A stretch of 63,992 nt of DNA, the filler included, from Candidatus Hydrogenedentota bacterium (GTDB lineage Bacteria > JBFMHD01), in the NCBI GenBank assembly GCA_040752395.1. It is 12 parts of 12 records of this genome, joined end to end, with 100 filler letters (N's around TTAATTAATTAA, not from the genome) between each part and the next. Parts side by side here need not be neighbours in the genome. Positions count along the whole stretch, not along the records: positions 5,805 to 11,417 come from JBFMHD010000181.1; 11 more parts are not named here. One strand, written 5' to 3'. The translations under genes were made by a program, and so were the position numbers. Position 1 is the first letter of the stretch, and each line of letters opens with the position of its first letter. Below the pieces are notes generated by a model. That model saw nothing but the letters and a program-made list of their open reading frames with translations, was not told the origin of the DNA and did no database searches. Positions 3-30,983 of this stretch are shown piece by piece.

Positions 3-3000
3 AAGGATGCTATCATTTACGAACTTCACGTGAAATCGTTTTTTGATAGTGTAGATGACGGCATCGGTGATTTTCGCGGGCTTATACAAAAACTCGATTA
101 TCTTGAGGGATTAGGGATAAACTGTATTTGGCTCCTACCATTTTATCCTTCCCCACTTAAAGATGACGGGTATGACATAAGTGATTATTTTAACATTCAT
201 TCCTCTTATGGCGCACTCCGTGATTTTCGCCTGTTTTTAAAACAAGCACACCGTCGTAACATGCGAGTTATTACTGAACTTGTATTAAACCATACTTCAG
301 ACCAGCATTTATGGTTTCAGCGTGCACGGTCTGCTCCCCCAGGCTCTATTTACAGAGATTATTATGTATGGAGCGATACCCCGGATAAATATAAGGATGC
401 AAGGATAATCTTCAAGGATTTTGAAAACTCTAACTGGAGCTGGGACCCTGTAGCAAAATCATACTACTGGCATCGGTTTTATTCGCATCAGCCAGATTTG
501 AATTTTGACAACCGTGATGTACAGAGGGAGATATTTAATATTATAGATTTCTGGTTTAAAACCGGGGTTGACGGACTTCGATTAGACGCTGTACCATATC
601 TTTTCGAAGAGGAAGGGACGAACTGCGAGAATTTACCAAAAACGCATTTGTTTTTAAAAAACTTGCGAAAACATATTGATAAAAAATTTAAAAATAGAAT
701 GCTTCTCGCCGAAGCAAACCAGTGGCCTGAAGATTCAGCAAAATATTTCGGTTCGGGTGACGAATGCCATATGGCGTTTCATTTCCCGATTATGCCGCGT
801 ATGTTTATGGCTGTTCAAATGGAAGACAGTTTCCCTATTATAGATATTTTTGAACAAACTCCCCAAATACCTGAAAATTCTCAATGGGCTCTTTTCCTGC
901 GTAACCACGATGAACTGACGCTCGAAATGGTGACAGAGGAAGAAAGGGATTATATGTATCGGGCTTATGCACAAGACTCACGAGCAAAAATTAATCTTGG
1001 TATCAGAAGACGGCTTGCACCTTTACTGAATAATAACCGAAAAAAAATAGAACTTCTTAACATATTACTCTTTTCTCTCCCCGGCACACCGGTTATTTAC
1101 TATGGTGATGAAATCGGTATGGGTGATAATTATCATCTTGGTGACCGTAATGGCGTTCGCACGCCGATGCAATGGAGCCCGGATAGAAATGCTGGCTTCT
1201 CCCGGGCTAACCCTCAAAATCTATATCTCCCTCTAATCATTGACCCTGAATACCATTATGAAGCAATTAATGTTGAAAATCAGGAAAAAAATCTATCATC
1301 ACTTCTCTGGTGGATGAAACGGGTTATTGCTATGAGAAAAAAATTTAAAGCTTTCAGTAGAGGAGATATTTCTTTCGTCTCCACTAATAATCCTAAAATT
1401 CTCGCATTTAGCCGTAAATTTCAGGACGAGATTATATTAATAGTCATAAACCTATCGAGGTTTTCTCAGGTCGTAGACTTAGGCCTCTCTCAATTCGCAG
1501 GTTTTGTCCCAGAAGAAGTGTTTAGCCAGAACAAGTTCCCACCTATTAGAAATTCACCCTATACTTTAATTCTTGGTTCTTACAATACTCACTGGCTATT
1601 ATTGACTGCTGTTAACGAAAAAATAGAATTACATAGAGAAGCTATTTTAAAAAAGTTAGTTCCTGAAATTACTATAAAACGACACCAGCTAAATTTTCAA
1701 GATAGGGAATTTAAAAATATTATACAGAAGATTATCCCTGATTATTTAAAAAAAGTTCAATGGTTCACAAACCGTTTTAAGACTATCTATAAAATCAGGA
1801 TTGTTGACCAGATAAACATTGTTAAAAATACCTGTATTTTTATCTTCGAAATCGGTTTCACTGAAGGCCCCCCTGAACTGTATCTCATCCCTGTCTCTAT
1901 TGTTTCAAAAAGCGATGGCCTTAAGCTTCAGGAAGAAGACCAGAACAGCATCATTGCAAAACTTCTGCCCGGTAAAAGAGAATACTTTTTATGCGATGCT
2001 TTTTACGATGAAAAGTTCCGCAAGTCTCTTTTATCAATTATCTTAAAAGAAAAGAAAATAAAAGGTGAAAAAGGAGAAATTATACCACACCTTAAAAAAA
2101 ATAATAAAAACTTCATCACTGATAACTCATTACTATTATCCTCAACAATTTTAAAAAGCAAACAGCATAATGCTTTAATAACTTACGGTACTGAACTGCT
2201 CCTGAAATCTTTCCGTCGCCTCGATTATGGGCTTAATCCTGAACTTGAAATTGAAAGAATTTTGAAATTTTCAAATATACCACAATATGCAGGAAGTATT
2301 GAATACAACCAGGGAAAAGAATTAAATATTACGCTATGTGTGTTATCAAAACTTATCCCGCACCAGGGTGATGTATGGTCATATACCTTAGACGCAGTAA
2401 GCAGGTTTTATAGTCATACGCTCTCAAAAAAACAGGAGATTAAGATAATCCCAAAAATATCAGGTGTATTTTCAAGGGTAGACTCTATTCCACAAAACAT
2501 AGAGGAGCTAATCAGAACGACTTTCCTTGGTATGATAAAGTTATTAGGGATACGCACTGCGGAATTACATTTAGCACTTACTTCTGTTTCAGATAATCCT
2601 GATTTTGTGCCTGAACATTTTTCAATGCTCTACCAGCGCTCGGTTTATCAATCAATGCGAAACCAGACCCGTAGAGCGTTCAGTTTACTCTTAAAAAATA
2701 TAAATGATCTGCCGCGGGATATACAGGATGACGCACAGTTTGTATTAAAATCAGAAAAAAATATCATCAACTATTTCCAAAAAATATATCAGAATAAATT
2801 ATCAGTATTAAAAATGCGAATACACGGGAACTATCATCTTGAGCAGATTCTTTTTACAGGTAAGGATTTTATCATTGCGGATTTTGAAGGAGATACAACA
2901 CGACCGATTAGTGAGCGCCGATTGAAACGTTCCCCACTCCGTGATATCGCGGGTATAATCCGTTCGTTTCATTATGTTGCACTTAAGGTTCTTTATCAGC

Positions 3001-3275
3001 ATCCATCTATCAGGAAGGAAGATATGGACTATCTTGAAGATTGGGCTAACATCTGGTGGTATTATGTAAGCAACGCTTTCCTTAAATCATATATAGATAC
3101 CATAAAGGATAAACCGATTGTTCCAGAACAGAAAGATGAGTTCGACCTTTTGCTTAATCTCTTTATTTTGAATAAAGCAATCTACGAACTCGAATACGAA
3201 CTCATCAACCGTTCCAGCTGGGTAATTATCCCGATTAAAGGCATCAAGCATTTTATAGAAAACTATTTAACCTGA
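3..3275 (+). CDS. treS: Trehalose synthase (GH13) fused to maltokinase Pep2/Mak; 5' truncated by window edge
   Basis: Frame open from nt 3 (KDAIIYELHV); GH13 motifs DDGYD, GLRLDAVPY, AEANQWPE, FLRNHDELTLE; C-terminal kinase-like RIHGNYHLEQIL, DFEG, SPLRDIAG. Confidence 0.93.
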   Translation, partial: KDAIIYELHVKSFFDSVDDGIGDFRGLIQKLDYLEGLGINCIWLLPFYPSPLKDDGYDISDYFNIHSSYGALRDFRLFLKQAHRRNMRVITELVLNHTSDQHLWFQRARSAPPGSIYRDYYVWSDTPDKYKDARIIFKDFENSNWSWDPVAKSYYWHRFYSHQPDLNFDNRDVQREIFNIIDFWFKTGVDGLRLDAVPYLFEEEGTNCENLPKTHLFLKNLRKHIDKKFKNRMLLAEANQWPEDSAKYFGSGDECHMAFHFPIMPRMFMAVQMEDSFPIIDIFEQTPQIPENSQWALFLRNHDELTLEMVTEEERDYMYRAYAQDSRAKINLGIRRRLAPLLNNNRKKIELLNILLFSLPGTPVIYYGDEIGMGDNYHLGDRNGVRTPMQWSPDRNAGFSRANPQNLYLPLIIDPEYHYEAINVENQEKNLSSLLWWMKRVIAMRKKFKAFSRGDISFVSTNNPKILAFSRKFQDEIILIVINLSRFSQVVDLGLSQFAGFVPEEVFSQNKFPPIRNSPYTLILGSYNTHWLLLTAVNEKIELHREAILKKLVPEITIKRHQLNFQDREFKNIIQKIIPDYLKKVQWFTNRFKTIYKIRIVDQINIVKNTCIFIFEIGFTEGPPELYLIPVSIVSKSDGLKLQEEDQNSIIAKLLPGKREYFLCDAFYDEKFRKSLLSIILKEKKIKGEKGEIIPHLKKNNKNFITDNSLLLSSTILKSKQHNALITYGTELLLKSFRRLDYGLNPELEIERILKFSNIPQYAGSIEYNQGKELNITLCVLSKLIPHQGDVWSYTLDAVSRFYSHTLSKKQEIKIIPKISGVFSRVDSIPQNIEELIRTTFLGMIKLLGIRTAELHLALTSVSDNPDFVPEHFSMLYQRSVYQSMRNQTRRAFSLLLKNINDLPRDIQDDAQFVLKSEKNIINYFQKIYQNKLSVLKMRIHGNYHLEQILFTGKDFIIADFEGDTTRPISERRLKRSPLRDIAGIIRSFHYVALKVLYQHPSIRKEDMDYLEDWANIWWYYVSNAFLKSYIDTIKDKPIVPEQKDEFDLLLNLFILNKAIYELEYELINRSSWVIIPIKGIKHFIENYLT

Positions 3276-3514
3276 CCGCTATGTAGGTAGTCAAGTCTAA
3301 TGTTGTTTCATATCACGAAATGCATTCTCTAAACTCTAGCGACCTGATATTCGGGTTAACACATCTTCAATGGATAGATTTATATCAGTGCAGAAGAAAC
3401 AAGTAATCCCTTTCTTGTTCGGATATTTTACAATGAATACTCGTATTATCGAACCAGCTGGTTTCCAATATGCTGTAAATGTCTGCAACGAAATAGTAAC
3501 TTTTTTACGAATGA

Positions 3515-3730
3515 ACCGAAATATTTGACCCCTTAGATTTTCTTGCAGCCGTAACTCAGCATATCCCCAACAAGGGCGACCACCTCATCAATTACTATGG
3601 GTGGTATTCAAATAAGTCTCGAGGAATGAGACGCAAACAGTCTGCTGTCTATATACCGCTGCAACTTCAAAATCAGGATGAGCAGGATATTTCAACCAAA
3701 CAAGCAAAAATGTCCTGGGCAGCACGCAGT
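3515..3730 (+). pseudogene. IS91-family (Y2) transposase C-terminal remnant
   Basis: Manual translation from 3521: IFDPLDFLAAVTQHIPNKGDHLINYYGWYSNKSRGMRRK...SWA; in-frame stop just upstream. Confidence 0.7.
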
Positions 3731-3882: not shown

Positions 3883-3912
3883 CCATCAAGAAAAACTTTA
3901 TGTAAAATCAAC

Positions 3913-3941
3913 TTGACAAAAAGTAATATTATTTGTATAAT
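3913..3941 (+). promoter_or_regulatory. Perfect sigma70 promoter TTGACA-N17-TATAAT
   Basis: TTGACA 3913-3918, TATAAT 3936-3941. Confidence 0.8.
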
Positions 3942-3947
3942 ATAATT

Positions 3948-5117
3948 ATGATTAAACCCAGATTAATCTTAGGGAAGATTAAACCCTATCTTCTTTTACC
4001 TGAAGCAATTATTATTACCGGAATGAGACAAACAGGTAAAACTACACTCTTAAATTATATCTATGACCAGATTAATTCTCGTAATAAAATTTTCTTAGAC
4101 CTTGAAAACCCTTTAAATAGGAGGTATTTTGAAGAGACAAACTATGAAAGGATAAAAAAAACCTTAGAGGTTTTGGGTATAGATTTTACTAAACAAGCCT
4201 TTATATTTTGTGATGAGATTCACTTTGTAAGGAATCTACCTTCTGTAGTTAAATATTTTATTGACCACTATAAAGTAAAGTTTTTCCTCACTGGTTCAGC
4301 CAGTTTCTACTTAAAGAACCTTTTTACCGAGTCTCTTTCTGGGAGAAAATACATCTTTGAGCTTTTTCCGCTTACCTTTGGTGAATTTCTTCTGTTTAAG
4401 GATGTAACTTTAAAGATACCACAAGAAGCAAAAGATATTACCCCTTCAATCTTTGAGACTATCTCCTGCTGGTATGAAGAATATATTTTATTTGGTGGAT
4501 TTCCTGGTGTAGTTTTAAAAACAAATCCTTCTGAAAAGAAGAAGATGCTTGAGGAAATTTTTACCTCCTTCTATCAATTAGAAGTAAGACAAATAGGAGA
4601 TTTTCGCAAGAATGAAATAATCAGGGATTTAATCTTACTTTTGATGCAACGCGTTGGCTTTAAATTAGATATTCAAAGGCTTTCCAAAGAATTAAGGATT
4701 TCTCGCCTCACCCTGAATGAATATATCTCTTTTCTTGAAGGGACTTATTTTATAAAAAGGGTCCGGCCTTTTAGTCAAGGTAAAGATACAGAGATCAGGA
4801 AGATGCCCAAGGTTTATCTTTGTGATAGTGGTCTTTGTAATCATTTTGCCAGATTAGATATGGGTGTTATTTTTGAAAATAGTGTTTTCCAAAATTTAAG
4901 GACAAAAGGCGAGATTAATTATTACCAGAGAAAAAGCGGGACAGAAATTGATTTTATCCTGAATAAAAAAGAGGCATATGAGGTAAAATTAACGCCGCAA
5001 GCCCCTGATTTAAGAAAACTAAAGGAGGTAGGAGACAAACTAAAATTAGAAAGCTCTAACATCATCTGCAAAAACTACTCTGAACTAAGTGATATTATCT
5101 ATGCCTTTATGTTATAA
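3948..5117 (+). CDS. AAA_14 ATPase with DUF4143-type C-terminus
   Basis: Walker A GMRQTGKT, Walker B FCDEIH, LTGSAS, GGFPGVV, EIDFIL; ATG 3948 preferred over TTG 3933. Confidence 0.85.
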   Translation: MIKPRLILGKIKPYLLLPEAIIITGMRQTGKTTLLNYIYDQINSRNKIFLDLENPLNRRYFEETNYERIKKTLEVLGIDFTKQAFIFCDEIHFVRNLPSVVKYFIDHYKVKFFLTGSASFYLKNLFTESLSGRKYIFELFPLTFGEFLLFKDVTLKIPQEAKDITPSIFETISCWYEEYILFGGFPGVVLKTNPSEKKKMLEEIFTSFYQLEVRQIGDFRKNEIIRDLILLLMQRVGFKLDIQRLSKELRISRLTLNEYISFLEGTYFIKRVRPFSQGKDTEIRKMPKVYLCDSGLCNHFARLDMGVIFENSVFQNLRTKGEINYYQRKSGTEIDFILNKKEAYEVKLTPQAPDLRKLKEVGDKLKLESSNIICKNYSELSDIIYAFML

Positions 5118-5408: not shown

Positions 5409-5804
5409 TGTCTTTGATACCTCCTCCCTAAATTTTTTGTAAAATATAATATATCTTTTTCTCCTTTTATTATAAACACAATTTTTGGGTCTTTCGTAAT
5501 TAAGTTGCAATTTAAATTAATAAATTGTATGGGAGGCGGCCGGTGGACAGCGGTTTTTGGGAAGGTTTTAGGAAACCTTTTCTTGAGTTTGACAGTTTAC
5601 GGAGTGGCAGATATCAAAAAAGTCAATTAAACCCCAATAAATGCACTTTATAGGCAAAAAAGATTTTAAAATTCTAAAAGCGTAGTGAAAACTATTTTAT
5701 TAAANNNNNNNNNNNNNNNNNNNNNNNNNNNNNNNNNNNNNNNNNNNNTTAATTAATTAANNNNNNNNNNNNNNNNNNNNNNNNNNNNNNNNNNNNNNNN
5801 NNNN

Positions 5805-6082
5805 TGCTGATATATTTTATTAAATGGATCTTTATCAAAGTAGTTTAAATCACGTGCTATATAAAAAATGCTCTGAACTTCAGCAGCAGATGCTTTAGAA
5901 ATAAATAAAAAATTTGATTGTCTTGAGAAGTCTTCTGGTATATTAGACATTATTGAAACCTCAGCTCGTAAACCTTGATCTTTTCTGAACTTTTCACTAT
6001 TATTTATAGTTTCATAAATCAATTTCACAAGAATTCTTGCCTCTTTCCAGCAATCTAAATCTTCAAACCTCTTTATTCTCAT
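5805..6082 (-). CDS. Four-helix-bundle protein (23S rRNA IVP / bAvd-like); 3' end lost in gap, apparently with small in-frame deletions
   Basis: RFEDLDCWKEA, VSIMSNI, FLFISKASAAEVQS, DLNY. Confidence 0.8.
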
Positions 6083-6118
6083 TCCTTACCTCGCTCCTTC
6101 TTTCTTAACGCAAGAACG

Positions 6119-9100
6119 CTATAACGTCATTAACGCGGCTTCAACAACTGCGGACAGCTGTTCCAGCTTGAAATTTCTGACAAATATTCCGCGTTTCGGG
6201 CAGGTTGCCATACAGTTGCCGCAACCATGACATAATTTTATATCCACCTCAACAGTCTTTTTGACAAGGCCTTCTCTCATGTATTCTATCAACGTGATAG
6301 CTTTATACGGGCAGGGATCAATACAGTATGCGCAGCCATCACAATTAGCATCTATGACTTCAGAGATTCTTGGTTCTATTTCCATTTTGTCTTTGGATAA
6401 AATAACTCCGGCACGTGTTGCAGCAGCCATTGCCTGCAGAATTGTTTCAGGAACGTTTTTCGGACCGTGTGCGGTACCGCAGACAAACACTCCCTCAGTT
6501 GCAAAATCAACGGGTCGTAACTTCATATGAGCTTCAAGAAAAAAGTTGTCGGCATTAAGCGGTACTTTTAATTTCTGGGCTATATCATTGTTGGTTTCAT
6601 TGGCTTCAATAGCTGATGATAATACAACAAGGTCAGTTGGTAAATCAAGTGTGGTATTGAGTATTATATCCTTTACCGACACGTTCAAGGTATCGCCATT
6701 AATGTTAACACCTGGTTTCTCTCCATCAAACCTTACGAATATAATGCCTGACTCTCTTGCTTTTCTGTAAAGTTTTTCATAAAAACCATAAGTTCTGATA
6801 TCTTTATGCAGGATATAAACATTTATATCAGGACTGATTTCCTTTAATTTTAATGCGTTCTTTATTGCGGTAGAACAGCAGACGCGGCTACAGTATTCTC
6901 GTGGTGCTTCGCGCGAACCCACACATTGAATCATAACTACGGTATTTGCGTTGTTGCGTTGTTGCGTTATTGCGTTGTTTGATAATTTTTCTTCGAGTTC
7001 CATCTGCGTTATAATATTTTTGTTTTGACCGTAGAGATATTCAGTTGGTTTATATTCTTTAGCACCTGTTGCAACGATTATAACGCCGTGACTGATCTTC
7101 TTTTCACCATCTGGAGTTTTGAGAGTCGTTTCAAATTTCGGTATACTGCCTTGTATGGCAGATACTTCGGAATTAAGATAAACGGATATAAGCTTGTTGC
7201 TTTTTACTTTGGAGATAACATCGTTCAATTTATTTACGATATCTCCATCAGCGCTGTAATGAATCTTTTTAGTCAGACCGCCGAGTTCACCGGTTTTTTC
7301 AACAAGATGCACGGAAAACCCGCTCCCTGCAAGTTCGAGTCCAGCGGTCATACCCGCTATGCCGCCGCCTATTACAAGCGCAGATTTTGTGATCTCAACA
7401 AACTGTGGATATAAACTATCATTAAACTTGACTTTGGTAACAGCCATTCTTATAAGGTCTTTAGCTTTTTCAGTGGCTAAATTCGGCTGATGCATATGTA
7501 CCCACGAACACTGGTCTCTAATATTAGCCATCTCAAAAAGATAGGGATTTAATCCTGCGGATTTTAAGGTATCCATAAAGAGCGGTTCGTGTGTTCTCGG
7601 TGTGCAGGAAGCTACCACCACGCGGTTTAAACCTTTTTCTATAATAACGTTTTTTATTTTTTCGCAGGTATCAGCTGAACAGGTGTATAGATTATTCTCG
7701 CAATAGACAACGTTCGGCAGAGTTTTAGCGTATTCAACAGTCTCAGGAACGTTTACCACGCTGGCGATGTTTGTACCACAGTGACAGATAAATACACCGA
7801 CTTTTGGTTCCTCTTTGCTCACATCTCTTTCAGGTGGGTATTCTTTTTGGGTTAAAAGCTGGCCTCGTACGTCACTTAACAGACTTAAGCACTTTGAAAC
7901 AGCAGCATCTGATTCCATAACAGTCTCAGGTATATCTTTAGGTCCTGTTGAGACACCGGCTACGAAAACGCCATCGATATTGGTCTTGACCGGATTCAGA
8001 GGGTCAGTATCAATAAACCCGTCATCATTTTCTTTAAGATTGAGTAAACTAGCTAACATTTTTGTAGGTCCTGAATATATGCCGACGCAAAGCACAACAA
8101 GGTCAAACTCTTCTTCAATCACTTCTGCTTCTTTACCTATATATTGAAGTTTAAGGTTTTTTGTGCTTGGGATCTGCTTTAGCGTTGAAGGGCTTGCTTT
8201 AATATAGCGAATACCTTGTTTCTTTGCTCTTTCATAATATAATTCATAACCTTTGCCGAAGGCGCGTATGTCTCTATAAAAGATAGTGCATTCAAGGTCA
8301 TGTTTGTGTTCTTTGGCAATGACTGCTTCTTTTGTTGCGTACATACAGCATACCGAAGAACAATACATTCTTTCAGTATCTCTTGATCCTACGCATTGTA
8401 TGAATGCTACTTTTTTAGGTTCGGTTTTATCATAAGGACGTAGTATATGACCTGCAAAAGGACCGGAAGCTGAAAGTATTCTTTCAAACTCAAGCGAGGT
8501 AATAACGTTCGGATACCTGCGGTATCCGAATTCACCAGCGGCTTCGGGATTAAATACTTCATAGCCAGGTGTTAGTATAACAGCACCGACAGAAAGCTCG
8601 CTTGTTTTATCCTGGTCATCATAATTGATAGCTTCAGCCTGGCATACCATTTTACAAATTCCGCAGTCATCATAGTTAAGGTGGATGCAGGCGTTTTTAT
8701 CAATCACTGGTTTATTGGGCACCATCTGCGGATACATAAGATAAATAGATGAACGACTGTCAATCCCCTGATTAAAATCGTTGGGGATAGGTTTTGGTTT
8801 TCGATTGCTTGAAGATGTAGAGATAGTTTTACCTGTTGGGCAGATAAAATCACAGGCTCTGCAGACCCAGCATTCCTCACTGTTTTTACTGAACGGTGTT
8901 TCAACTTTTCTTCGAGGGCCGCGGCCGATAAAACCGAGTGCTTTTCGTCCCATTCGTTCTTCGCACATCCTCACGCATAATCCACAGTAAACACAATCTT
9001 CATTCTTCTTTTTTATTCTGACCTCTTTCACGCCTAAATCAGAGGCTATCTTTTGTATAATTGGTGAATCTGGACATCTGGCGAGCAATAATTCTGCAAT

Positions 9101-9364
9101 TATTTTTCTTGCATTTTTTACCCGGTCAGTATCGGTTTGGATAGACAGGCCATTTAACGCGGGGTAAGAGCAGGAAGCCTGAAGCGATGGGGCTCTGCCT
9201 TGCTGATGCACCTCAACAAGACATAGTCTGCAAGCGCCATAAGGCACAAGCGCTTTATGATGGCATAAGGTCGGGACTTTTAATCCCATCATTTCAATGC
9301 ATTGAAGCAGCGTTTTATCTTCAGGGAACTCTTTTTTTATACCGTTGATAGTTAATTCAACCAC
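6119..9364 (-). CDS. NuoG/HydA-type 2Fe-2S N-terminus fused to heterodisulfide reductase A-like modules
   Basis: PTLCHH/GACRLC, CVYCGLC; two QCVGSR...YCSxVCC motifs; GVFICHCGTNI, ASCTPRTHEPLF, NIRDQCSWVH, GGGIAG; C-terminal ferredoxin. Confidence 0.85.
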   Translation of the reverse strand: MVELTINGIKKEFPEDKTLLQCIEMMGLKVPTLCHHKALVPYGACRLCLVEVHQQGRAPSLQASCSYPALNGLSIQTDTDRVKNARKIIAELLLARCPDSPIIQKIASDLGVKEVRIKKKNEDCVYCGLCVRMCEERMGRKALGFIGRGPRRKVETPFSKNSEECWVCRACDFICPTGKTISTSSSNRKPKPIPNDFNQGIDSRSSIYLMYPQMVPNKPVIDKNACIHLNYDDCGICKMVCQAEAINYDDQDKTSELSVGAVILTPGYEVFNPEAAGEFGYRRYPNVITSLEFERILSASGPFAGHILRPYDKTEPKKVAFIQCVGSRDTERMYCSSVCCMYATKEAVIAKEHKHDLECTIFYRDIRAFGKGYELYYERAKKQGIRYIKASPSTLKQIPSTKNLKLQYIGKEAEVIEEEFDLVVLCVGIYSGPTKMLASLLNLKENDDGFIDTDPLNPVKTNIDGVFVAGVSTGPKDIPETVMESDAAVSKCLSLLSDVRGQLLTQKEYPPERDVSKEEPKVGVFICHCGTNIASVVNVPETVEYAKTLPNVVYCENNLYTCSADTCEKIKNVIIEKGLNRVVVASCTPRTHEPLFMDTLKSAGLNPYLFEMANIRDQCSWVHMHQPNLATEKAKDLIRMAVTKVKFNDSLYPQFVEITKSALVIGGGIAGMTAGLELAGSGFSVHLVEKTGELGGLTKKIHYSADGDIVNKLNDVISKVKSNKLISVYLNSEVSAIQGSIPKFETTLKTPDGEKKISHGVIIVATGAKEYKPTEYLYGQNKNIITQMELEEKLSNNAITQQRNNANTVVMIQCVGSREAPREYCSRVCCSTAIKNALKLKEISPDINVYILHKDIRTYGFYEKLYRKARESGIIFVRFDGEKPGVNINGDTLNVSVKDIILNTTLDLPTDLVVLSSAIEANETNNDIAQKLKVPLNADNFFLEAHMKLRPVDFATEGVFVCGTAHGPKNVPETILQAMAAATRAGVILSKDKMEIEPRISEVIDANCDGCAYCIDPCPYKAITLIEYMREGLVKKTVEVDIKLCHGCGNCMATCPKRGIFVRNFKLEQLSAVVEAALMTL
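6946..6977. repeat. Intragenic (TTGCGTTR)x4 octamer array inside the HdrA-like gene
   Basis: Encodes NAITQQRNNAN; same unit occurs intergenically at 15039-15054. Confidence 0.8.
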
Positions 9365-9380
9365 AAAGCTCTCCTAAATA

Positions 9381-9644
9381 GGCACAGAGGCACAGAGGCA
9401 CAAAGTTAAGAACCTCTTATTTTCTTTATTAAACTACCGAGCATACGTTCAATCTCACGAGATAATTCATAAATTTTTTCAAAAGTTTCTTTGTTAATAT
9501 AATTTAAATCAAAAGCAATTTCTATTTGGGTCTGCATTTCATAAATTGAACTTTGAGACATTACTCATTGATTTTTGCCAGACTATCAAATCTTTATAAG
9601 TTTTCATACTCTGTGCCTTTGCCACTTTGTGCCTTTGTGCCTTG
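9381..9644. mobile_element. Cassette: inverted GGCACA(G/A)A octamer arrays bracketing the four-helix-bundle pseudogene
   Basis: ggcacaga repeats 9381-9405 and reverse-complementary tgtgcc repeats 9608-9644 abut the stop and start codons. Confidence 0.65.
9406..9607 (-). pseudogene. Four-helix-bundle (23S-IVP/bAvd-like) gene with internal deletion/frameshift; absent from ORF track
   Basis: ATG 9607: MKTYKDLIVWQKSM; second frame: SSIYEMQTQIEIAFDLNYINKETFEKIYELSREIERMLGSLIKKIRGS* (TAA 9406-9408). Confidence 0.85.
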
Positions 9645-10082
9645 TTTAATCACATAATCAAAACTCAAATTCACCTCGGGATGGGTTGCTCTCAATACTT
9701 TCAGAGTTTTCTCTATATCTCCGATGGGTTTCATATCGATATGATCCATCTTAAACGTTGCAATAACCTTTGTGCCTCTGTGCCTCTGTGCCTCTGTGCC
9801 TTCCCCTGTACAACTTTCAATCTTCATTTCGCCTTCTGCTTCCCTGCACGCCTGAGAAAGCATCGATAACCCGAGTCCAAACTTCTTCCCTTGTTTCGTT
9901 GTATAAAACGGATTTGCTGCATTTTCTAAAGATTCTTTATCCATACCTTTGCCGTTATCCTCAATTTCAAGTGTCAGAAAATCATCTTTCTTGTTTTCTA
10001 TCATTCTAATATCGATCCTGCTTGCGCCTGCTCTTAAAGAGTTTTCTACGATATCCATAATATGTAACGATAAATCTTCCAT
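9594..10082 (-). CDS. HATPase_c (histidine kinase-like ATPase) of DRTGG/hydrogenase-associated operons
   Basis: DIVENSLRAGA, EDNGKGM, PFYTTK, GLGL, HIDMKPIGD. Confidence 0.85.
   Translation of the reverse strand: MEDLSLHIMDIVENSLRAGASRIDIRMIENKKDDFLTLEIEDNGKGMDKESLENAANPFYTTKQGKKFGLGLSMLSQACREAEGEMKIESCTGEGTEAQRHRGTKVIATFKMDHIDMKPIGDIEKTLKVLRATHPEVNLSFDYVIKQGTKAQSGKGTEYENL
9768..9801. repeat. Intragenic (CTCTGTGC)x4 octamer array
   Basis: Encodes GTEAQRHRGTK at the G-x-G-T region of the HATPase. Confidence 0.8.
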
Positions 10083-11142: not shown

Positions 11143-11363
11143 ACTTTGTGCCTCTGTGTCTCTGTGCCTTCTCCTCCTCTGAAAAACGCTGTAACTCTAA
11201 TAATTCGGGGTACAGGCTACAGGCTACGGACTACAGCCGGCTGGAGCCCGAAGCCCGGAGCCTGAAGTCCGGAGCCTGAAGCCAACATATCATCTTTAGT
11301 TTTTCATACGTTGTGCCTCTGTGCCTCTTTCGTTATCTTTCTTTCCGTTATCTTGCATCTTGC
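11143..11363 (-). repeat. Mosaic intergenic element (upstream TAG, GCAAGA heptamers, module C, module B, terminal SD module, octamers, ATG)
   Basis: Terminal module 11171-11204; ATGAAAAACTAAAGATGATATG 11286-11307. Confidence 0.9.
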
Positions 11364-11517
11364 CTATAACAATCTTAATTTAGTAACCCGTGGATCAAGA
11401 ATAACCTCATCATGTTCNNNNNNNNNNNNNNNNNNNNNNNNNNNNNNNNNNNNNNNNNNNNTTAATTAATTAANNNNNNNNNNNNNNNNNNNNNNNNNNN
11501 NNNNNNNNNNNNNNNNN

Positions 11518-11924
11518 AGCAAGAGGCAAGAAGCAAGAAGCAAGATTATGGAATCCCACTGAAGACCGAGGGAATACAGTATACTGCTTCCCTGAAACGT
11601 GAGACACTTTAAAGGGGAGGGAAAGAGGCACAAAGGCACAAAGTATGAAAAAAATAGGAGTTAGGAGTTCGTAATAATAGATACGAGCTCCGAGCTCCGA
11701 ACTTTTTCGAAGGAGTTTTCATGAGCGCGGGTTGCGCTCTACACTATTGTGTTATTGGGTTCTTGGGTTATTGGGTTCTTGGGTTTTTGCGCTCTACACA
11801 ATATATGAAAAACTAAAGATGATATGTTGGCTTCAGGCTCTGGGCTTTTGGCTCCAGCCGGCTGTAGTCCGTAGCCTGTAGCCTGTAGCCCGAATTATTA
11901 GAGTTACAGCGTTTTTTGAAGGAG
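11518..11924 (+). repeat. Longest mosaic element copy (at least 407 bp, 5' end in gap), containing most modules
   Basis: GCAAGAA heptamers, CCCTGAAACGTG module, GGCACAAA, GGAGTTA hairpin, GCGCTCTACAC-(TTGGGTTA)n-GCGCTCTACAC, modules C and B, terminal module 11894-11924. Confidence 0.9.
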
Positions 11925-11934
11925 AGATTAATTT

Positions 11935-14125: not shown

Positions 14126-14950
14126 ATGATACGAGGTCTTTACACAGGCGCTATCGGAATGTATATGAGAATGAACCAGCATGACGTTATTGCTAATAAT
14201 ATTGCCAATGTCGATACTACAGGTTATAAAGCTGATAGAATTATCTTTAAAGCTTTTCCAGATAAAGTAGCAAGCAGATTAAATGATGATATAGAAAGAT
14301 TTATAGATGGTTCTATTATTGATAAGGCGCCGAAAGTTGGTAAAATTGGTACCGGTGTAGAAATTAACGACCTTTATTCTAATATGGCACAGGGACAATT
14401 ACAGGAAACAGATAGCCCGTTTGATTTAGCGATACTTGGTAATGGGTTTTTTGCTGTTCAGACACCGGATGGTATTAAATATACTCGGAATGGTGCGTTT
14501 ACTGTTAATAGTGAGGGTATTTTGATGACAGAGGCGGGTTATTCTGTACTTGGTGAGTCAGGATTAATTGTTGTTTTGGATGATAATAATTTTGTTGTAC
14601 GGGATGATGGCAGTATTGTTGTCAATCTTAATGATGATAAGCGGCCACCAAACGAATTTGAACAGACAATTGTTTCGGATAAAATTAAAATAGTTACATT
14701 TAAAGAACCGCGACAACTTGATAAGTATGGTCATAATCTTTTTGAACCGACTGAAGAGAGCGGTCATCCTGAACCTGCGATTGATGTGAGAATAAAACAG
14801 GGAGCAATAGAAAAATCAAACGTTAATATTGTTGAAGAGATGGTGTTACTTATAGATGTTATGAGGGCTTATGAGGCTAATCAAAAGAGTGTCCAGGTAC
14901 ATGATGATTTGTTAAGACAGGCATGGAGTGAGGTTTCAAGGTTTGCCTGA
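14126..14950 (+). CDS. flgF: Flagellar basal-body rod protein FlgF/FlgG family
   Basis: IANNIANVDTTGYK, YTRNGAF, EKSNVNIVEEM. Confidence 0.8.
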   Translation: MIRGLYTGAIGMYMRMNQHDVIANNIANVDTTGYKADRIIFKAFPDKVASRLNDDIERFIDGSIIDKAPKVGKIGTGVEINDLYSNMAQGQLQETDSPFDLAILGNGFFAVQTPDGIKYTRNGAFTVNSEGILMTEAGYSVLGESGLIVVLDDNNFVVRDDGSIVVNLNDDKRPPNEFEQTIVSDKIKIVTFKEPRQLDKYGHNLFEPTEESGHPEPAIDVRIKQGAIEKSNVNIVEEMVLLIDVMRAYEANQKSVQVHDDLLRQAWSEVSRFA

Positions 14951-14970
14951 TTTTAGTCGATAGTTTAAGA

Positions 14971-15165
14971 GAGGTAAGATAACGAAAGAAGCAAGAAGCA
15001 AGATAATTGGGTTATTGGGTTATTGGGTTATTGGGTTATTGCGTTATTGCGTTATCTTGCTTCTTGCCTCTTGCTTCTTTCGTTATCTTTCTTTTTTGTT
15101 ATCTTGCTTCTTGCTTCTTGCTTCTACTTGATATTATTATAGTTACAGCGTTTTTCAGAGGAGGT
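14971..15165 (+). repeat. Mosaic element between flgF and flgG providing the flgG SD
   Basis: AGATAACGAAAGAAGCAAGA inverted arms around (TTGGGTTA)4(TTGCGTTA)2; terminal module 15133-15164. Confidence 0.9.
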
Positions 15166-15174
15166 ACATAACCT

Positions 15175-15966
15175 ATGATGAGGTCATTATGGACTGCAGC
15201 AAGCGGAATGACAGCTCAACAATTTAATGTTGATGTTATTTCTAATAACCTTGCAAATGTTAATACCACAGGTTATAAGAAAACAAGAACAGAATTTGAG
15301 GATTTATTGTATGAAACATTAAAACTGGCAGGCACACCTGCCTCAGTCGGTTCACAGATTCCAACAGGTATTCAGGTGGGACACGGGGTTAAACCTTCAT
15401 CAACCAAGGGGTTGTTTACACAGGGTGATTTTATGCAGACAGATGACCCATTAAACATTCTTATTGAGGGCGAGGGATTTTTTCAGGTGGAACTTCCTGA
15501 TGGTACTATAGGTTATACGCGGGATGGCTCGTTTGAAATAGATTCAACGGGTCAGATGGTTACAAGTCAGGGTTATAGATTAATCGATTCTGAGATAGTT
15601 ATACCTGAAGATACACTGGATATAATGATTAATGCAGAGGGTGTTGTGAATGTGAGGATTGCGGGTCAGACTGCGTTGCAGGAAGTAGGGCAGATTAACC
15701 TTGCTAATTTTATTAATCCCTCGGGTCTTTTGAAGGTAGGTGAGAACGTGTTCAAGGAAACAGCTGCAAGCGGTGCACCGATTGTTGGTGCGCCTGGTGA
15801 AAATGATAATGGTGTATTAAGACAGGGGTTTCTTGAATTATCAAATGTCAAAGTCGTTGAAGAAATGGTTAATCTTATAACCGCTCAACGAGCTTATGAA
15901 TCTAACTCTAAAACAATACAGGCAGCTGATAATATGCTTGCTACCGCGGTTAATCTGAGAAGATAG
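15175..15966 (+). CDS. flgG: Flagellar basal-body rod protein FlgG
   Basis: MRSLWTAASGM, ISNNLANVNTTGYK, FEDLLY, LELSNV, AQRAYE. Confidence 0.95.
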   Translation: MMRSLWTAASGMTAQQFNVDVISNNLANVNTTGYKKTRTEFEDLLYETLKLAGTPASVGSQIPTGIQVGHGVKPSSTKGLFTQGDFMQTDDPLNILIEGEGFFQVELPDGTIGYTRDGSFEIDSTGQMVTSQGYRLIDSEIVIPEDTLDIMINAEGVVNVRIAGQTALQEVGQINLANFINPSGLLKVGENVFKETAASGAPIVGAPGENDNGVLRQGFLELSNVKVVEEMVNLITAQRAYESNSKTIQAADNMLATAVNLRR

Positions 15967-15982
15967 CAAGGAGACTTAATCC

Positions 15983-16915
15983 GTGAGATTTAAATTGTGT
16001 GCTGTTTTATTATTGATTTTTATCTCTTTTCAATTAGATGCTGTAACTATTAAATTGAAAGACTCTGTAGTTGTAAGAGATGACAATATCTATCTTTCTG
16101 ATATTTGCGAGTCCATTAATGATAAGAATTTATTAATCTGCGAGTCACCAGCTCCTGGAACGAAACGTATTATACCGTCACGTCTTGTTGAAATAAGATT
16201 AAAACAAGCGCATCTACGTGATATAAAATTTGAGGATAGCGACAGGTGCGAGGTATACAGGTCTGCTGATATCGTCTCTGATGAAATGATTAAAGACAAT
16301 ATATTAGAATTCTTAAACAAAAACAGACCCGAAGGCGTTTTTAATCCTGAGTATAGATTCATAAAATTACCAGGTAAAGTTTATGTTAAAGAGGGTAAGA
16401 TAAGATTAGAGGTTCAAGCAAAGAATAGAAAAATTAATTTCTATGGGAGTAATTTTCTTGAAGTGAAAGTTTATGTAGATGATGAGATACAAAAAAATAT
16501 AAATATATGTGTTGATATTGAGAGTATGGTTGAAGTTGCAGTTGCGGCAAGAGAGATTCCGCGTGGAAAAATTATAAGCGAGGAAGATATCTTTCTTACA
16601 CTTAAACGATATAAAGAGATCCCGAAGGATGCTTATGACAAACTTGAACTTTTAATCGCTAAGAGAGTAAGACATTTTATTGATAAGGATATCTGTCTTA
16701 CTCCGCGAGATGTTGAGATACCGCCTGTTGTAAAGAGGGGGGATGAGGTTACTTTAATTTCAAAGATAGGGAATATAGTTATCTCTGTTAAAGGCGAAGC
16801 AAGAGAGGATGCCAGATTAGGAGACAAAATCTGGGTTAAAAATATACAATCAGGTAAAATGGTTCAGGGAGTCGTAACTGATTGTAATAGAGTTAGTGTT
16901 GGAGGTAATTTATGA
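15983..16915 (+). CDS. flgA: Flagellar P-ring formation chaperone
   Basis: Signal peptide, SAF domain VAAREIPRG, VKRGDEV, VKNIQSGK; lies between flgG and flgH. Confidence 0.88.
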   Translation: MRFKLCAVLLLIFISFQLDAVTIKLKDSVVVRDDNIYLSDICESINDKNLLICESPAPGTKRIIPSRLVEIRLKQAHLRDIKFEDSDRCEVYRSADIVSDEMIKDNILEFLNKNRPEGVFNPEYRFIKLPGKVYVKEGKIRLEVQAKNRKINFYGSNFLEVKVYVDDEIQKNINICVDIESMVEVAVAAREIPRGKIISEEDIFLTLKRYKEIPKDAYDKLELLIAKRVRHFIDKDICLTPRDVEIPPVVKRGDEVTLISKIGNIVISVKGEAREDARLGDKIWVKNIQSGKMVQGVVTDCNRVSVGGNL

Positions 16916-23049: not shown

Positions 23050-24843
23050 TTATTCAGGTTCGTTTGCGCGCAGGACAGCGAGGAAGCCTTGTTGCGGGAT
23101 CTCGACCTTACCGATTTTCTTCATTCTTTTTTTACCCTCTTTCTGTCGTTCGAGCAGTTTTCGTTTACGAGTCACGTCACCGCCATAACATTTTGCTGTC
23201 ACGTTCTTGCGAAGCGCTGATATGTTCTCCCGAGCTATCACTCGACTGCCTGTGGCTGCCTGGATCGGGATTGTAAATAGATGTCGTGGGATGACCTCTT
23301 TTAATTTCTTAACAAGATTTTTGCCGTATCTATAAGCCTTTGTTTTATGAACAATGACACTTAATGCATCAACGGGTTCATCATTAACTAAGATATTAAT
23401 TTTAACCATATCTGATTTTTTGTAATGAAGGTTGCTGTAATCCATTGATGCATAACCTCTGCTAATTGATTTTAGTTTATCATAGAAATCAAATATCATT
23501 TCAGTTAACGGCATCTCATATTCGAGCATCACTTTCTCGCAGTCAAGATATATCATCTCTTTTTGTATAGCTCTTCTGTCATTTAAAATATCCAGTATAG
23601 AGCCAACATAAAAGGAAGGTGATACTATCTTCAGGTCAAGATAAGGTTCTTCGACGTAATCAATCATAGCGGTATCTGGGAATTTAGAAGGATTTTCACA
23701 GTAAGCGGTCTCGTTATTTTTCATAACAACTTTATATTTTACGTTAGGCGCGGTAACAATCAGATCGAGATTAAATTCTCGCTCTAATCGTTCCTGAATA
23801 ATCTCCATATGTAATAATCCGAGGAATCCGCATCTATATCCAAAGCCGAGTGCATTAGATGTTTCCTGGCTGAACTCAAACGATGTATCATTTAAGTGAA
23901 GTTTTAGAAGCGCTTTTTTTAATTCTTCGAAATCAGTGCCTCTTACAGGATACATACCACAAAAGACCATAGGCTTTAGTTCTTTATAACCTGGTACAGG
24001 TTTTATTTCAGGGACTGAGACATTATAAAGCGTATCACCTATCTTTATTTCGCGTAAACTTTTAAACCCGGCGATACAATAACCGACCTCACCTGCTGTA
24101 AGTTTATCAGATGGGGCTCTTTCAGGCGTAAGATAACCTATCTCCTGAACCTCATAAACTTTCTCTCCGCTATAAAATTTTACTTTCATCTTTTGTTTAA
24201 TTTTACCATCAAACACTCTGATATAAATGACACCTGCAACGTAATCATCATATTTAGCATCAAAAACAAGTGCTTTGAAAGGGGCGTCAGTTGAGCCAGA
24301 GGGTGGTGGAATCCGCTCTATAATACTACAAAATACGCTGTCAATTCCCTCTCCTGTTTTGGCACTTATATAAAGTATCTCATCTTTAGAAAAACCAAGG
24401 TCTATAATCTGATTTCGTATTCTATCAAGATTTATGTTTTTAACATCTATTTTGTTAATGACAGGTATGACAATCTTACCTGTATCCATAGCGAGATATA
24501 AATTAGCAATGGTCTGGGCTTCAACGCCCTGTGTCGCATCAACAAGTAATATGACGCCTTCGGTTGCCCCTAAAGATCTTATAACTTCGTATGAAAAATC
24601 AACGTGTCCTGGTGTATCGATAAGATTTAAGATATATTCTTCATTACGAAAATTATATTTTAGTCTTGCGGTATTTGCTTTAATAGTTATGCCCCGTTCT
24701 CTTTCTATCTCCATATCATCCATAATGAGTTCTATTTTTTCTTTTTTTTGTAATAGTCCTGCTTTTTCAATGAGTCTATCAGATAAAGTGGATTTACCAT
24801 GGTCTATATGAGCTATTATGGCAAAATTTCGAATATTGTTCAT
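23050..24843 (-). CDS. lepA: Elongation factor 4
   Basis: IAHIDHGKSTL, DTPGHVDF, GFLGLLHMEI, KCYGGDVTRKRKL. Confidence 0.98.
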   Translation of the reverse strand: MNNIRNFAIIAHIDHGKSTLSDRLIEKAGLLQKKEKIELIMDDMEIERERGITIKANTARLKYNFRNEEYILNLIDTPGHVDFSYEVIRSLGATEGVILLVDATQGVEAQTIANLYLAMDTGKIVIPVINKIDVKNINLDRIRNQIIDLGFSKDEILYISAKTGEGIDSVFCSIIERIPPPSGSTDAPFKALVFDAKYDDYVAGVIYIRVFDGKIKQKMKVKFYSGEKVYEVQEIGYLTPERAPSDKLTAGEVGYCIAGFKSLREIKIGDTLYNVSVPEIKPVPGYKELKPMVFCGMYPVRGTDFEELKKALLKLHLNDTSFEFSQETSNALGFGYRCGFLGLLHMEIIQERLEREFNLDLIVTAPNVKYKVVMKNNETAYCENPSKFPDTAMIDYVEEPYLDLKIVSPSFYVGSILDILNDRRAIQKEMIYLDCEKVMLEYEMPLTEMIFDFYDKLKSISRGYASMDYSNLHYKKSDMVKINILVNDEPVDALSVIVHKTKAYRYGKNLVKKLKEVIPRHLFTIPIQAATGSRVIARENISALRKNVTAKCYGGDVTRKRKLLERQKEGKKRMKKIGKVEIPQQGFLAVLRANEPE

Positions 24844-26591
24844 TAATCAAAAGCACCTATTTTTTTGAGTATAGGACCGATAGTTTTTTTCAGTTTTTTT
24901 TCTACTAATTCATGGGAGGGTAGTTCAAGAAGTGGTGGGATTATATTTTTAATCGTGGTTGTATCTAAATGCATAATTATATTTTTCACTTCAAGTAAAG
25001 AGGCTATACTGACACTGAATTCTCTAATCCCAAGACCAATCAATAGTGGAATGAACTCAATTTCAGAAGCCATCTCGCCACAAATCCCCACTTCAATACC
25101 TGCTTCATTAGCTGCGTCAACGGTTTCTTTGATTAATCTAAGGTTTGCGGGGTGAAGCGGGTTATACAAATGTGCCACGTGTTCATTACCTCTATCAACC
25201 GCGAGAGTATATTGCAGCAAATCATTTGTACCTATTGAAAAGAAATCAACAATTTTTGCAAAATGTTTAGCTAAAAGGGCGGCAGCTGGTATCTCAATCA
25301 TTATACCCACTTTTATATCGGTCTCTTTTTTTAATTCTTCTTTTGCCTTCTGTAAGCACTTTTTTGCTTCCTGTAACTCATATATATTCGATATCATAGG
25401 AAACATAACATAAACATTACCGTGTTCAGAGGCACGCAGGATAGCCCGCAGCTGAGTAATAAACATATCTTTGTTAAATAAAGAAAATCTTATTGCGCGT
25501 AACCCAAGGAATGGGTTCTGTTCTCTTATGTATTCACCGTCTTTGAAAACTTTATCTCCACCAACATCAATAGTTCTAATCACCAATGGTTTATCTTTTA
25601 ATAATTTTACAGCCTTTAAATATTCCCTGTATTGTTCATCTTCTTTTGGGAAGTCAAGTCTATCAAGAAATAGGTACTCAGTTCTAAAAAGTCCGACACC
25701 TTCGGCACCTGTTTCAAGGGAGGGCACTATTTCATCAGGGTTCTCAATATTTGCCAGAATTTTTATTTTTATGCCGTCAATAGTGACAGTTCCTCGGTCT
25801 TTCAAAGTGATAAGTGTTCTTCTATGTTCTTCAATTTCGAACTGTTTTTTTATATATCTATTTTCAGTCCTTTTTAGAGGATTTAAAATAACTAAACCTT
25901 CTTCACCATCGATAATCATTTTATCGCCAGGCCTGGCATATATCATAATATCTTTTATTCCAACAACAGCTGGTATATTCAGTGATCGACCAAGGATGGC
26001 GGTATGCGAGGTTCTGCTGCCAACCGCTGTAGCGAACCCGAGAATAAAAGTTTTATCCATACCCGCACTATCAGAGGGTGTTAAATCCTGTGCAACTATA
26101 AGTGATGGTTTTTTAATTTTATGTTTTTCATCCCATTTTGTTAATTTCTTTAATATTCGAAGGCCTACGTCCTGGATATCCATTTTCCTTTCTTTGATAT
26201 ATTCATCATTAATATCTTCAAATCTTTCTTTAAATTTCTCTATGGTTTCAAGTAATGCAAACTCAGAATTAATCTTTTCTTTTCGGATTTTACTTGTAAC
26301 TTCAGTTATTAAAAGCGGGTCTTCGAGCAGTAATATGTGGGCTTCAAAAATATCGGCTCCGATTTCATCTGTTTTACCACCTATCTTTTCTTTAAGATTT
26401 AAAATATCTGCTTTACACTCCTCTATGGCTTGTTTGACTCTTTGTACCTCTTCTTCAATCTTTCTTGTATCAATCACATATCTTGTTACGTCAATCTCCG
26501 GGGTATGAAGATTGACTTCGGCTATAGCGATCCCCGGGGACGCAGGTATACCTTGTAATCTTATCTCTTGTTTCAGTCTTCTGGCGATCAA
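24843..26591 (-). CDS. ptsI: PTS enzyme I
   Basis: TSHTAI, GLFRTE, NPFLGLRAIR, SIGTNDL, CGEMA. Confidence 0.96.
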   Translation of the reverse strand: MIARRLKQEIRLQGIPASPGIAIAEVNLHTPEIDVTRYVIDTRKIEEEVQRVKQAIEECKADILNLKEKIGGKTDEIGADIFEAHILLLEDPLLITEVTSKIRKEKINSEFALLETIEKFKERFEDINDEYIKERKMDIQDVGLRILKKLTKWDEKHKIKKPSLIVAQDLTPSDSAGMDKTFILGFATAVGSRTSHTAILGRSLNIPAVVGIKDIMIYARPGDKMIIDGEEGLVILNPLKRTENRYIKKQFEIEEHRRTLITLKDRGTVTIDGIKIKILANIENPDEIVPSLETGAEGVGLFRTEYLFLDRLDFPKEDEQYREYLKAVKLLKDKPLVIRTIDVGGDKVFKDGEYIREQNPFLGLRAIRFSLFNKDMFITQLRAILRASEHGNVYVMFPMISNIYELQEAKKCLQKAKEELKKETDIKVGIMIEIPAAALLAKHFAKIVDFFSIGTNDLLQYTLAVDRGNEHVAHLYNPLHPANLRLIKETVDAANEAGIEVGICGEMASEIEFIPLLIGLGIREFSVSIASLLEVKNIIMHLDTTTIKNIIPPLLELPSHELVEKKLKKTIGPILKKIGAFD

Positions 26592-26593
26592 AG

Positions 26594-26878
26594 TTATTCT
26601 TCTCCAAACTTGCTGTTAATTAAATCCTCAAAAGCCTTCATAGCTTTGTCCGCATCTTCACCCTCAATCTCTACTTTAATCTTACTGCCTTTAGTTGCAG
26701 CAAGCATCAATACTCCCATTATAGACTTACCATTAACTCGCTCACCATCTTTTATAAGATAAGTTTCTGATTGAAACTTATTGAGGGTCTGAACAATTAA
26801 CGCAGCTACGCGTGCATGTAATCCAAGTTTATTCTGTATCTCAAGTTCTTTCGATATCATTAAAACAGCGGTATTCAT
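26594..26878 (-). CDS. ptsH: HPr phosphocarrier
   Basis: GLHAR, KSIMGVLMLAA. Confidence 0.93.
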   Translation of the reverse strand: MNTAVLMISKELEIQNKLGLHARVAALIVQTLNKFQSETYLIKDGERVNGKSIMGVLMLAATKGSKIKVEIEGEDADKAMKAFEDLINSKFGEE

Positions 26879-26879
26879 A

Positions 26880-27869: not shown

Positions 27870-27877
27870 TGTAAATT

Positions 27878-27931
27878 GTAAGTAGAAGTAAGAGGCAAGA
27901 AGCAAGATAACGGAAGAAGTGAGAGGTATCA
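27878..27931 (-). repeat. Module F + GCAAGA heptamers beginning at the ptsN TGA
   Basis: TGATACCTCTCACTTCTTCCGTTATCTTGCTTCTTGC identical to 38093-38129 and 51300-51336. Confidence 0.88.
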
Positions 27932-30738: not shown

Positions 30739-30983
30739 TAATACGGCGGTGCTGCTCTAATCTTCTACAAATATACGAAGATTAAGCGGTTCAAGCCTTA
30801 AGTTCATACTCCCTGAATATCTCCTCGTATNNNNNNNNNNNNNNNNNNNNNNNNNNNNNNNNNNNNNNNNNNNNNNNNNNNNNNNNNNNNNNNNNNNNNN
30901 NNNNNNNNNNNNNNNNNNNNNNNNNNNNNNGTGTAGAGCGCAAACCGCGCTCATGACCACTCCTCTAATACGGCGGTGCTGCT

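Follow-up and report, generated by a model that had tools for sequence, protein, structure and literature searches.

What is a broken copy of a small four-helix-bundle gene doing between two mirror-image runs of 8-base repeats in the middle of an operon? To answer this question, we examined a stretch of 63,992 nucleotides from Candidatus Hydrogenedentota bacterium (GCA_040752395.1; hereafter the window), with emphasis on positions 9644-9380 of the minus strand. The original prediction was that this locus is a four-helix-bundle gene enclosed by inverted octamer arrays, and that it represents a mobile, intervening sequence (IVS)-like system acting in mRNA, whose emptied shells litter the genome. 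The observation itself was confirmed by our analysis. However, the interpretation was only partly supported, as shown below.

A decayed cassette at an operon junction

Read on the minus strand, the locus runs GGCACAAAGGCACAAAGTGGCAAAGGCACAGAGT, ATG, MKTYKDLIVWQKSMSNVSKFNL-stop, continues in another frame as ...SQSSIYEMQTQIEIAFDLNYINKETFEKIYELSREIERMLGSLIKKIRGS-TAA, and is followed by CTTTGTGCCTCTGTGCCTCTGTGCC. The 5′ arm (9608-9644) includes about four tandem 8-mers of the GGCACARA type (GGCACAAA GGCACAAA GTGGCAAA GGCACAGA GT), and TRF reported 4.0 copies of period 8 at 9612-9643. The N-terminal remnant of the gene (9538-9606, ATG at 9606) is a 22-codon frame. It aligned with the start of a homologue at locus L077 of another genome, but matched positions 1-17 of our own family profile only weakly (E = 2.7), as expected for 16 residues. 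The C-terminal remnant (9406-9561, 51 aa, helices 3-4), which ends ...EIERMLGSLIKKIRGS-TAA, matched PF05635 at profile positions 65-105 of 106 (E = 2.1e-9, 38 bits against a cut-off of 33.8) and TIGR02436 (40.9 bits against a cut-off of 24). It was 59-64% identical to intact genes at loci L060, L063, and L077. An intact gene of this family has about 115-135 residues covering all four helices. Here, about 47 codons (profile positions about 18-64) are missing and the two pieces are in different frames, and therefore the copy is a pseudogene.

The 3′ arm (9380-9405, CTTTGTGC CTCTGTGC CTCTGTGC CT) is the reverse complement of the 5′ arm unit. Positions 9380-9406 pair with 9608-9642 at 78-95% complementarity over 19-27 nt, and the pattern GGCACARAGGCACA with at most one mismatch occurs 15 times in the window against 0.01 expected from shuffles. 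In addition, the predicted fold of the cassette RNA closes on the arms (−74.3 kcal/mol, z = −4.08, 0 of 200 shuffles as good). Thus, like a 23S rRNA IVS, the locus has terminal inverted repeats able to form a stem around the ORF and tandem short repeats next to the ORF start. However, it is not located in a 23S rRNA helix. Rfam found only a tRNA in the window, and no Rfam family was found on the arms of the window or of nine other cassette loci.

The cassette lies between a HATPase_c gene (9594-10082, minus strand) and a 2Fe-2S/HdrA-like gene of 1081 aa (6119-9364, minus strand), whose GTG start lies 15 nt after the 3′ arm. Homology of the HATPase to its relatives ends near residues 144-146, and the last ~16 residues come from the cassette. 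The ORF runs through the 5′ arm, stops inside the old start of the dead gene, and ends ...QGTKAQSGKGTEYENL. This agrees with the original prediction that the arm encodes the HATPase C-terminus. The DRTGG-PHP-HATPase-HdrA-like gene order is shared by six genome relatives (52-56% HATPase identity) and three metagenome relatives. In eight of these nine operons (L001-L005, L198, L199, and L202), the HATPase stop and the next start are −14 to 17 nt apart, whereas about 230 nt plus a 16-residue ORF extension are found here. A scan of metagenomes for closer relatives of the operon gave at best 62% identity, so that these empty sites are not at strain level. By our reading, removing 9381-9644 (264 nt, a multiple of three) would leave an ORF whose stop overlaps the GTG of the next gene. 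No target site duplication was visible at the junction.

The ninth operon (L009) has 143 nt made only of other 7/8-mer arrays, which look like tandem duplications of the native sequence next to the stop and start codons. Furthermore, the window includes 49-54 arrays of period 7/8/14/16 in 64 kb, of many unit types (abundant units include AGCAAGA, CTGTAGC, and ATTGGGTT). These two results could suggest a coincidence, in which a decaying small gene merely happens to lie between two slippage-born arrays at a gene boundary. However, the two arrays here share one unit in inverted orientation, and L077, which is 64% identical to the window fragment, has the same GGCACAAA/CTTTGTGCC arms in another genome. 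Together with the controls given below, these results make coincidence very unlikely.

Other arrays and family members were found nearby. A GGCACAGA array inside the HATPase coding sequence (9767-9801, minus strand) is an 8-residue in-frame insert (GTEAQRHR) absent from all six genome relatives. It is complementary to the 3′ arm at 26 of 26 positions, and a longer predicted RNA fold pairs it with the 3′ arm (z = −7.41). A second PF05635 gene (5753-6082, minus strand; E = 1e-16, 61.5 bits) lies right after the 1081-aa gene, and its only structural link is a sequence match to PDB 2gsc (E = 6.8e-5). Its 3′ end and any 3′ arm lie under masked N (5705-5804), one of the periodic masked stretches of the window. 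An 8-mer array of the TAACGCAA type (6106-6136, minus strand) lies between the stop of the 1081-aa gene and this second gene, and is 77-85% complementary to an array inside the upstream coding sequence at 6946-6979. A protein-level search of the window found PF05635 pieces only at the cassette and at this second gene, and no PF13366-like piece was found.

Inverted arrays around PF05635 genes in other genomes

To test whether this layout is peculiar to the window, we scored each gene by a local alignment of its 150-nt upstream flank with the reverse complement of its 150-nt downstream flank. A score of 30 or more was reached by 13 of 27 PF05635 genes in four relatives' genomes, 15 of 30 taken from 30 Bacteroidota genomes, 22 of 29 from Desulfobacterota (one of 30 loci gave no gene), and 8 of 17 from three further genomes (five of 22 loci gave no gene). 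Thus, 58 of 103 family genes lie between inverted tandem 7-8-mer arrays, and 45 score below 30. It should be noted that these loci are the best-scoring matches of each search, ORF starts were set by simple rules, and relatedness was not controlled. In the controls, the score was reached by 1 of 267 ORFs in 392 kb (itself a PF05635 gene), 3 of 107 neighbour ORFs (two of them mis-centred PF05635 genes), and 2 of 840 ORFs from 30 genomes (one PF05635 and one PF13366). Among about 1,200 other ORFs, only two that are not themselves PF05635 genes were bracketed in this way. The absence of such flanks in other members had been named beforehand as a result that would count against the original prediction, and this was not what we found.

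Of eight plasmid-borne copies, three reached 30 (Geminocystis, Stanieria, and Gemmatirosa). Three of the other five show arrays by eye, namely Nostoc punctiforme on both sides, and Nostoc PCC 7120 alpha and gamma on the 3′ side only. One plasmid locus of Azospirillum lipoferum (L238) lies inside a 23S rRNA gene (LSU rRNA, Rfam 2537 bits) and is a true IVS. Its ORF is preceded by AGGACGG/ATGACAG-type heptamers and followed by the complementary CCGTCCT/CTGTCTT-type heptamers, just before the rRNA sequence resumes. For Coxiella burnetii, three tandem GACAGAT heptamers before the S23p ATG, copy number varying among strains, RNase III cleavage at the first repeat, and a decaying ORF have been reported (PMC4990558). 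Both rRNA cases share with the cassette the gene family, the inverted arms of tandem short repeats with a G/A-rich 5′ arm, and the sense orientation of the gene. However, the copy here lies between protein-coding genes and not in helix 25 or 45 of 23S rRNA, its unit is 8 nt, and RNase III excision is shown for Coxiella only.

The arms are tandem repeats, with period 7 in 27 and period 8 in 8 of 57 arms, and no clear period in 19. The unit differs from cassette to cassette (for example, CGTGAAA, ACGTGGG, AGGGTCG, TCGTAAA, TAGCAGT, and GACTCAG), and arm words are shared only between cassettes whose proteins are at least 60% identical. Thus, the two arms change together and faster than the protein. 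The sense strand of the 5′ arm has G>C in 51 of 54 cassettes. Furthermore, of 89 cassettes with both neighbours called, 75 lie between co-directional genes and 68 of those are in sense, with median spacers of 73 and 54 nt. The intact proteins are under purifying selection (dN/dS 0.06-0.27 in four syntenic pairs, while two further pairs were saturated). Among 10 pairs of near-identical cassettes in different genomes, six have both flanks homologous, and therefore many copies are long-term residents rather than active movers.

Members of the family are also related to Avd, the accessory protein of diversity-generating retroelements (DGRs). The window fragment matched Pfam bAvd at E = 0.0046. Avd is described as a positively charged pentamer like S23 proteins that binds an RNA stem-loop, and distal sequences flanking the template pair in the DGR RNA (10.1101/2023.10.23.563531). 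However, no reverse transcriptase or transposase was found among the 37 ORFs scanned, in agreement with the original prediction, and no template/variable repeat is nearby. Meanwhile, the DivGenRetAVD model (NF033474) scored 28.7 against a cut-off of 80 for the closest intact homologue and did not list the window's pieces.

Turnover of cassettes and solitary arrays

A second family of small genes, PF13366 (PD-(D/E)XK-type, GxxExxY), is bracketed alike. Of 27 genes (three of 30 loci were dropped), 12 scored 30 or more, and their arms are often of the CACAGAG/GGCACAAAG type, the window's unit. We then compared two orthologous cassette sites of one genome (G005) with its family relatives (other G numbers). 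Site 1, that of cassette L015, lies between a RecX-like gene and its neighbour, which are adjacent and co-directional. The spacer is 6-9 nt in G235, G247, and G238, about 45 nt in G234, 21 nt with a mini-palindrome built of one arm-like unit in G260, and about 110 nt of arrays without a gene in G236. G005 and G255 carry PF05635 cassettes, while G248 carries a PF13366 cassette with the same promoter-like motif as the G005 cassettes. At site 2, that of cassette L018, G260 and G236 have only a 28-30-nt direct array of the arm's unit type, G005 has the cassette, and G248 has a homologous gene in the opposite orientation with other arms. Therefore, gain, loss, replacement, and inversion occur, although the direction of change was not polarised with a tree. 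At the better-resolved polymorphic site the cassettes are antisense to the flanking genes and carry their own promoter-like motif, and therefore they are not mRNA introns there.

Across 32 Bacteroidota genomes, array density in samples of 20-340 kb rises with the number of PF05635 matches (Spearman 0.62, P = 1.5e-4), from a mean of 1.4 arrays per 100 kb in genomes with two matches or fewer to 8.1 in those with eleven or more. However, this correlation was not corrected for relatedness, and two samples were not random. Arm units also recur at gene-less sites of the same genome. For instance, the arm of cassette L024 has 7 sites in 340 kb of G005 and 0 in 1.09 Mb of other genomes.

Gene-less shells do exist, at 11143-11934 of the window, as hairpin elements in L181, and at the G236 site. 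The block at 11143-11934 is intergenic and partly masked, including the core of the element at 11.3-11.6 kb. It holds nested inverted arrays (TACAGGC/CTGTAGC 650 nt apart and GTGCC/GGCAC 311 nt apart) and two inverted copies (11281-11309 and 11803-11831) of a module that resembles the PF05635 5′ end. This resemblance, which the original prediction had claimed for the cassette junction, is real. The local alignment score with the module at 11281-11316 was 28, above the 99th percentile (21) of 4,974 window segments, and 12 segments reach 28, including the module's own copies. However, only 14 of 49 arrays in the window, and 3 of 71 in the G005 sample, have an inverted partner within 1.5 kb. Most free arrays are solitary, and the claim that emptied shells litter the genome is poorly supported and holds only in part.

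Two rival explanations should be considered here. In the first, PF05635 proteins are resident nucleic-acid-binding regulators that recognise tandem heptamers, each gene being flanked by its own sites for autoregulation and the free arrays forming its regulon. Purifying selection and synteny, the correlation of copy number with array density, the units shared by free arrays and cassette arms of the same genome, and the binding of RNA stem-loops by Avd agree with this view. In addition, most TAACTGA heptamer arrays in one Beggiatoaceae genome lie just upstream of start codons, and such arrays, some near starts, were found in five Bacteroidetes (PMC4679880). However, the free arrays show no orientation preference relative to neighbouring genes (24 against 25, and 18 against 15 within 60 nt of a start), which also led us to drop the idea that they are sense-strand leader elements. 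Moreover, the unrelated PF13366 is bracketed in the same way, cassettes sit inside 23S rRNA, and the copy here is dead yet its arrays persist. We consider this explanation doubtful.

In the second, the cassette is a foldback/MITE-like DNA element whose arms act as DNA hairpins or terminal repeats for an enzyme encoded elsewhere, possibly PF13366, and the RNA stem would be incidental. The polymorphism at orthologous sites, the recurrence of arm units at gene-less sites, the 15 occurrences of GGCACARA arrays in the window, and the rise of array density with family copy number are in favour of it. In addition, an identical protein record (WP_010994075.1) sits on two Nostoc PCC 7120 plasmids beside transposases. 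Furthermore, mismatches in 63 arm pairs gave no RNA-strand signature (88 G:U-type against 70 A:C-type, P = 0.18), and transversion-type mismatches were commoner still (181), and thus the stem could equally matter as DNA. Foldback transposons and MITEs have inverted arms of short tandem sub-repeats and unequal length, and some copies carry genes while many do not. However, we found no transposase link, the arms differ between cassettes so that no common protein-binding end exists, and many copies are syntenic and conserved. At the window, inverted arms are present and the arm unit is dispersed, but no target site duplication was seen and whole-element copies were not found in the 64 kb. The sense-orientation bias and the G-rich 5′ arm are also not required by a symmetric DNA palindrome. 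This explanation is possible but unlikely.

Interpretation of the cassette and its family

We propose, with moderate confidence, that 9380-9644 is a decayed copy of an IVS-type gene cassette, a PF05635/TIGR02436 gene enclosed by two inverted arrays of tandem 8-mers, inserted at the stop codon of the HATPase gene. Our analysis establishes the insertion relative to related operons, the death of the gene, the complementarity of the arms, the same anatomy as the family norm in several phyla and in a true 23S rRNA IVS, the turnover and cargo exchange at orthologous sites in another lineage, the fast change of arms that stay complementary and polar, the purifying selection on intact proteins, and the mostly sense placement between co-directional genes. 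The reading of the locus as an IVS-like cassette in an mRNA operon is supported. By contrast, the RNA step is inferred by analogy only. In this view, the arms would pair in the host transcript into a stem of 24 bp or more that loops the gene out, and RNase III would cut it as demonstrated for the Coxiella 23S IVS. The insert would thereby be removed or insulated from the host RNA, making insertion in rRNA or inside operons tolerable. It is likewise inferred that the Avd-like protein probably binds this stem, and that at DNA level the inverted arms promote gain, loss, and inversion.

We found the general rule of the bracketed anatomy nowhere in the literature searched on PF05635, IVSs, Avd-like proteins, RNase III processing, and PF13366, although subscription papers, such as the original Leptospira IVS reports, were outside this search. 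The short tandem heptamer arrays (STRR) of Cyanobacteria, Beggiatoaceae, and Bacteroidetes are likewise intergenic 7-mers in a few copies, often next to start or stop codons, sometimes inside ORFs, and absent from close relatives' intergenic regions. However, PMC4679880 found essentially direct repeats, and its main text does not hold the words S23 or intervening, while the arrays here form an inverted pair around a gene. Integron gene cassettes are also small, often promoter-less single-gene units with a hairpin-forming repeat, and alternative cargo can occupy one site. However, they have a single attC at one end and need an integrase and attI, whereas there are two arms of tandem units at scattered operon junctions here.

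A broader reading is tentative and, at present, rather unlikely. PF05635 and PF13366 genes may be the cargo of one widespread, so far unnamed class of hairpin-armed cassettes that colonise rRNA helices and operon junctions in many bacterial phyla. Their fast-evolving arms, left behind singly or in pairs after gene loss, would be the source of the enigmatic heptamer arrays of Bacteroidota, Cyanobacteria, and relatives. The four-helix-bundle protein would act on the arm stem, and the PD-(D/E)XK protein might cut DNA for homing.

PF05635 genes gave matches in 96 of 121 sampled Bacteroidota genomes, with up to 19 matches per genome (matches are not exact copy numbers), and in 58 of 101 Desulfobacterota genomes, and a control hit was obtained in Bacteroides thetaiotaomicron. 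The anatomy predicts RNase III cuts in the arms, binding of the protein to its own stem, and gain or loss at operon junctions. Furthermore, this shared anatomy ties together the origin of 23S rRNA intervening sequences, the biology of a very large uncharacterised family related to the DGR protein Avd, and the scattered heptamer arrays described since the early cyanobacterial work.

Arrays within and between the operon genes

A GGCACAGA x4 array was found inside the HATPase coding sequence (window 9767-9801), where it forms an in-frame insert of 8 residues (GTEAQRHR) in the G-x-G loop region. This insert is absent from six relatives, and the array is perfectly complementary (26 of 26) to the 3' arm of the cassette, 362 nt away. 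In addition, a second PF05635 gene follows the 1081-aa gene, with an 8-mer array of the TAACGCAA type lying over the stop of the 1081-aa gene (window 5753-6136), and the 3' side of this second gene is masked. A TTGCGTTG x4 array with 77-85% complementarity to this 8-mer array lies inside the 1081-aa coding sequence (window 6946-6979), in a linker that varies among relatives. Meanwhile, at the same HATPase/HdrA-like junction in another genome (locus L009, positions 5858-6000), there are 143 nt made only of four or five different 7/8-mer arrays. The units of these arrays resemble the native sequence at the stop and start codons, as if they were born by local tandem duplication.

Gene-less and possibly composite repeats

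A recurring module (...GCGCTCTACACAAAGTATGAAAAACTAAAGATGATATG...) was found at window 17249, 23010, 30646, 39737, 11302, and 11803, where it sits in gene-less intergenic blocks together with other arrays (AGTCTTG, GACTCAC, AGCAAGA, and ATTGGGTT). It looks like a family of composite, MITE-like repeats. It should be noted that paired 44-N masks around a TTAATTAATTAA spacer recur at regular intervals (window 5705-5804 and every ~5.6 kb), that there is one 100-N gap (window 30831-30930), and that these hide parts of repeat elements. In addition, at locus L181 (positions 2840-3570), a PF13366 gene is flanked on each side by a copy of a gene-less hairpin element, which consists of CGCAGAG x4, a loop of about 32-57 nt, and then CTCTGCG x4, and a PF05635 cassette lies 4 kb away. 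Furthermore, a ~55-nt element of locus L285 (about 3909-3967, query 2409-2467 of the similarity search) occurs at 86-93% identity at many loci of the genomes G242, G248, G255, and G005. In the same search, the long GTGGGAC array (query 1043-1155) matched many loci in G236, G244, G248, and G255 at 75-91%.

Promoter-like motifs and genomic context

A conserved promoter-like motif (…ATATAACCTTT…GGATTAAT…) lies between the 5' arm and the ATG in five PF05635 cassettes of genome G005 (loci L015, L018, L022, L024, and L030). In G248, it lies outside the 5' arm of a PF13366 cassette (locus L272). Meanwhile, the same protein record (WP_010994075.1) is annotated on two plasmids of Nostoc sp. PCC 7120, gamma (locus L232) and alpha (locus L233), in each case next to transposase genes. 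Both of these copies have a TTGACT...TATAAT promoter-like site, and both have a CTTCTGC/CCTCTGC heptamer array on the 3' side only.

Flagellar rod genes, FlgA, HPr kinase, and PTS enzyme I sit in the window (14126-16915 and 24843-27932), and the operon proteins of this window are closest (55-60%) to Bacteroidota MAGs. As an inference only, the organism may belong to a flagellated lineage of that group.
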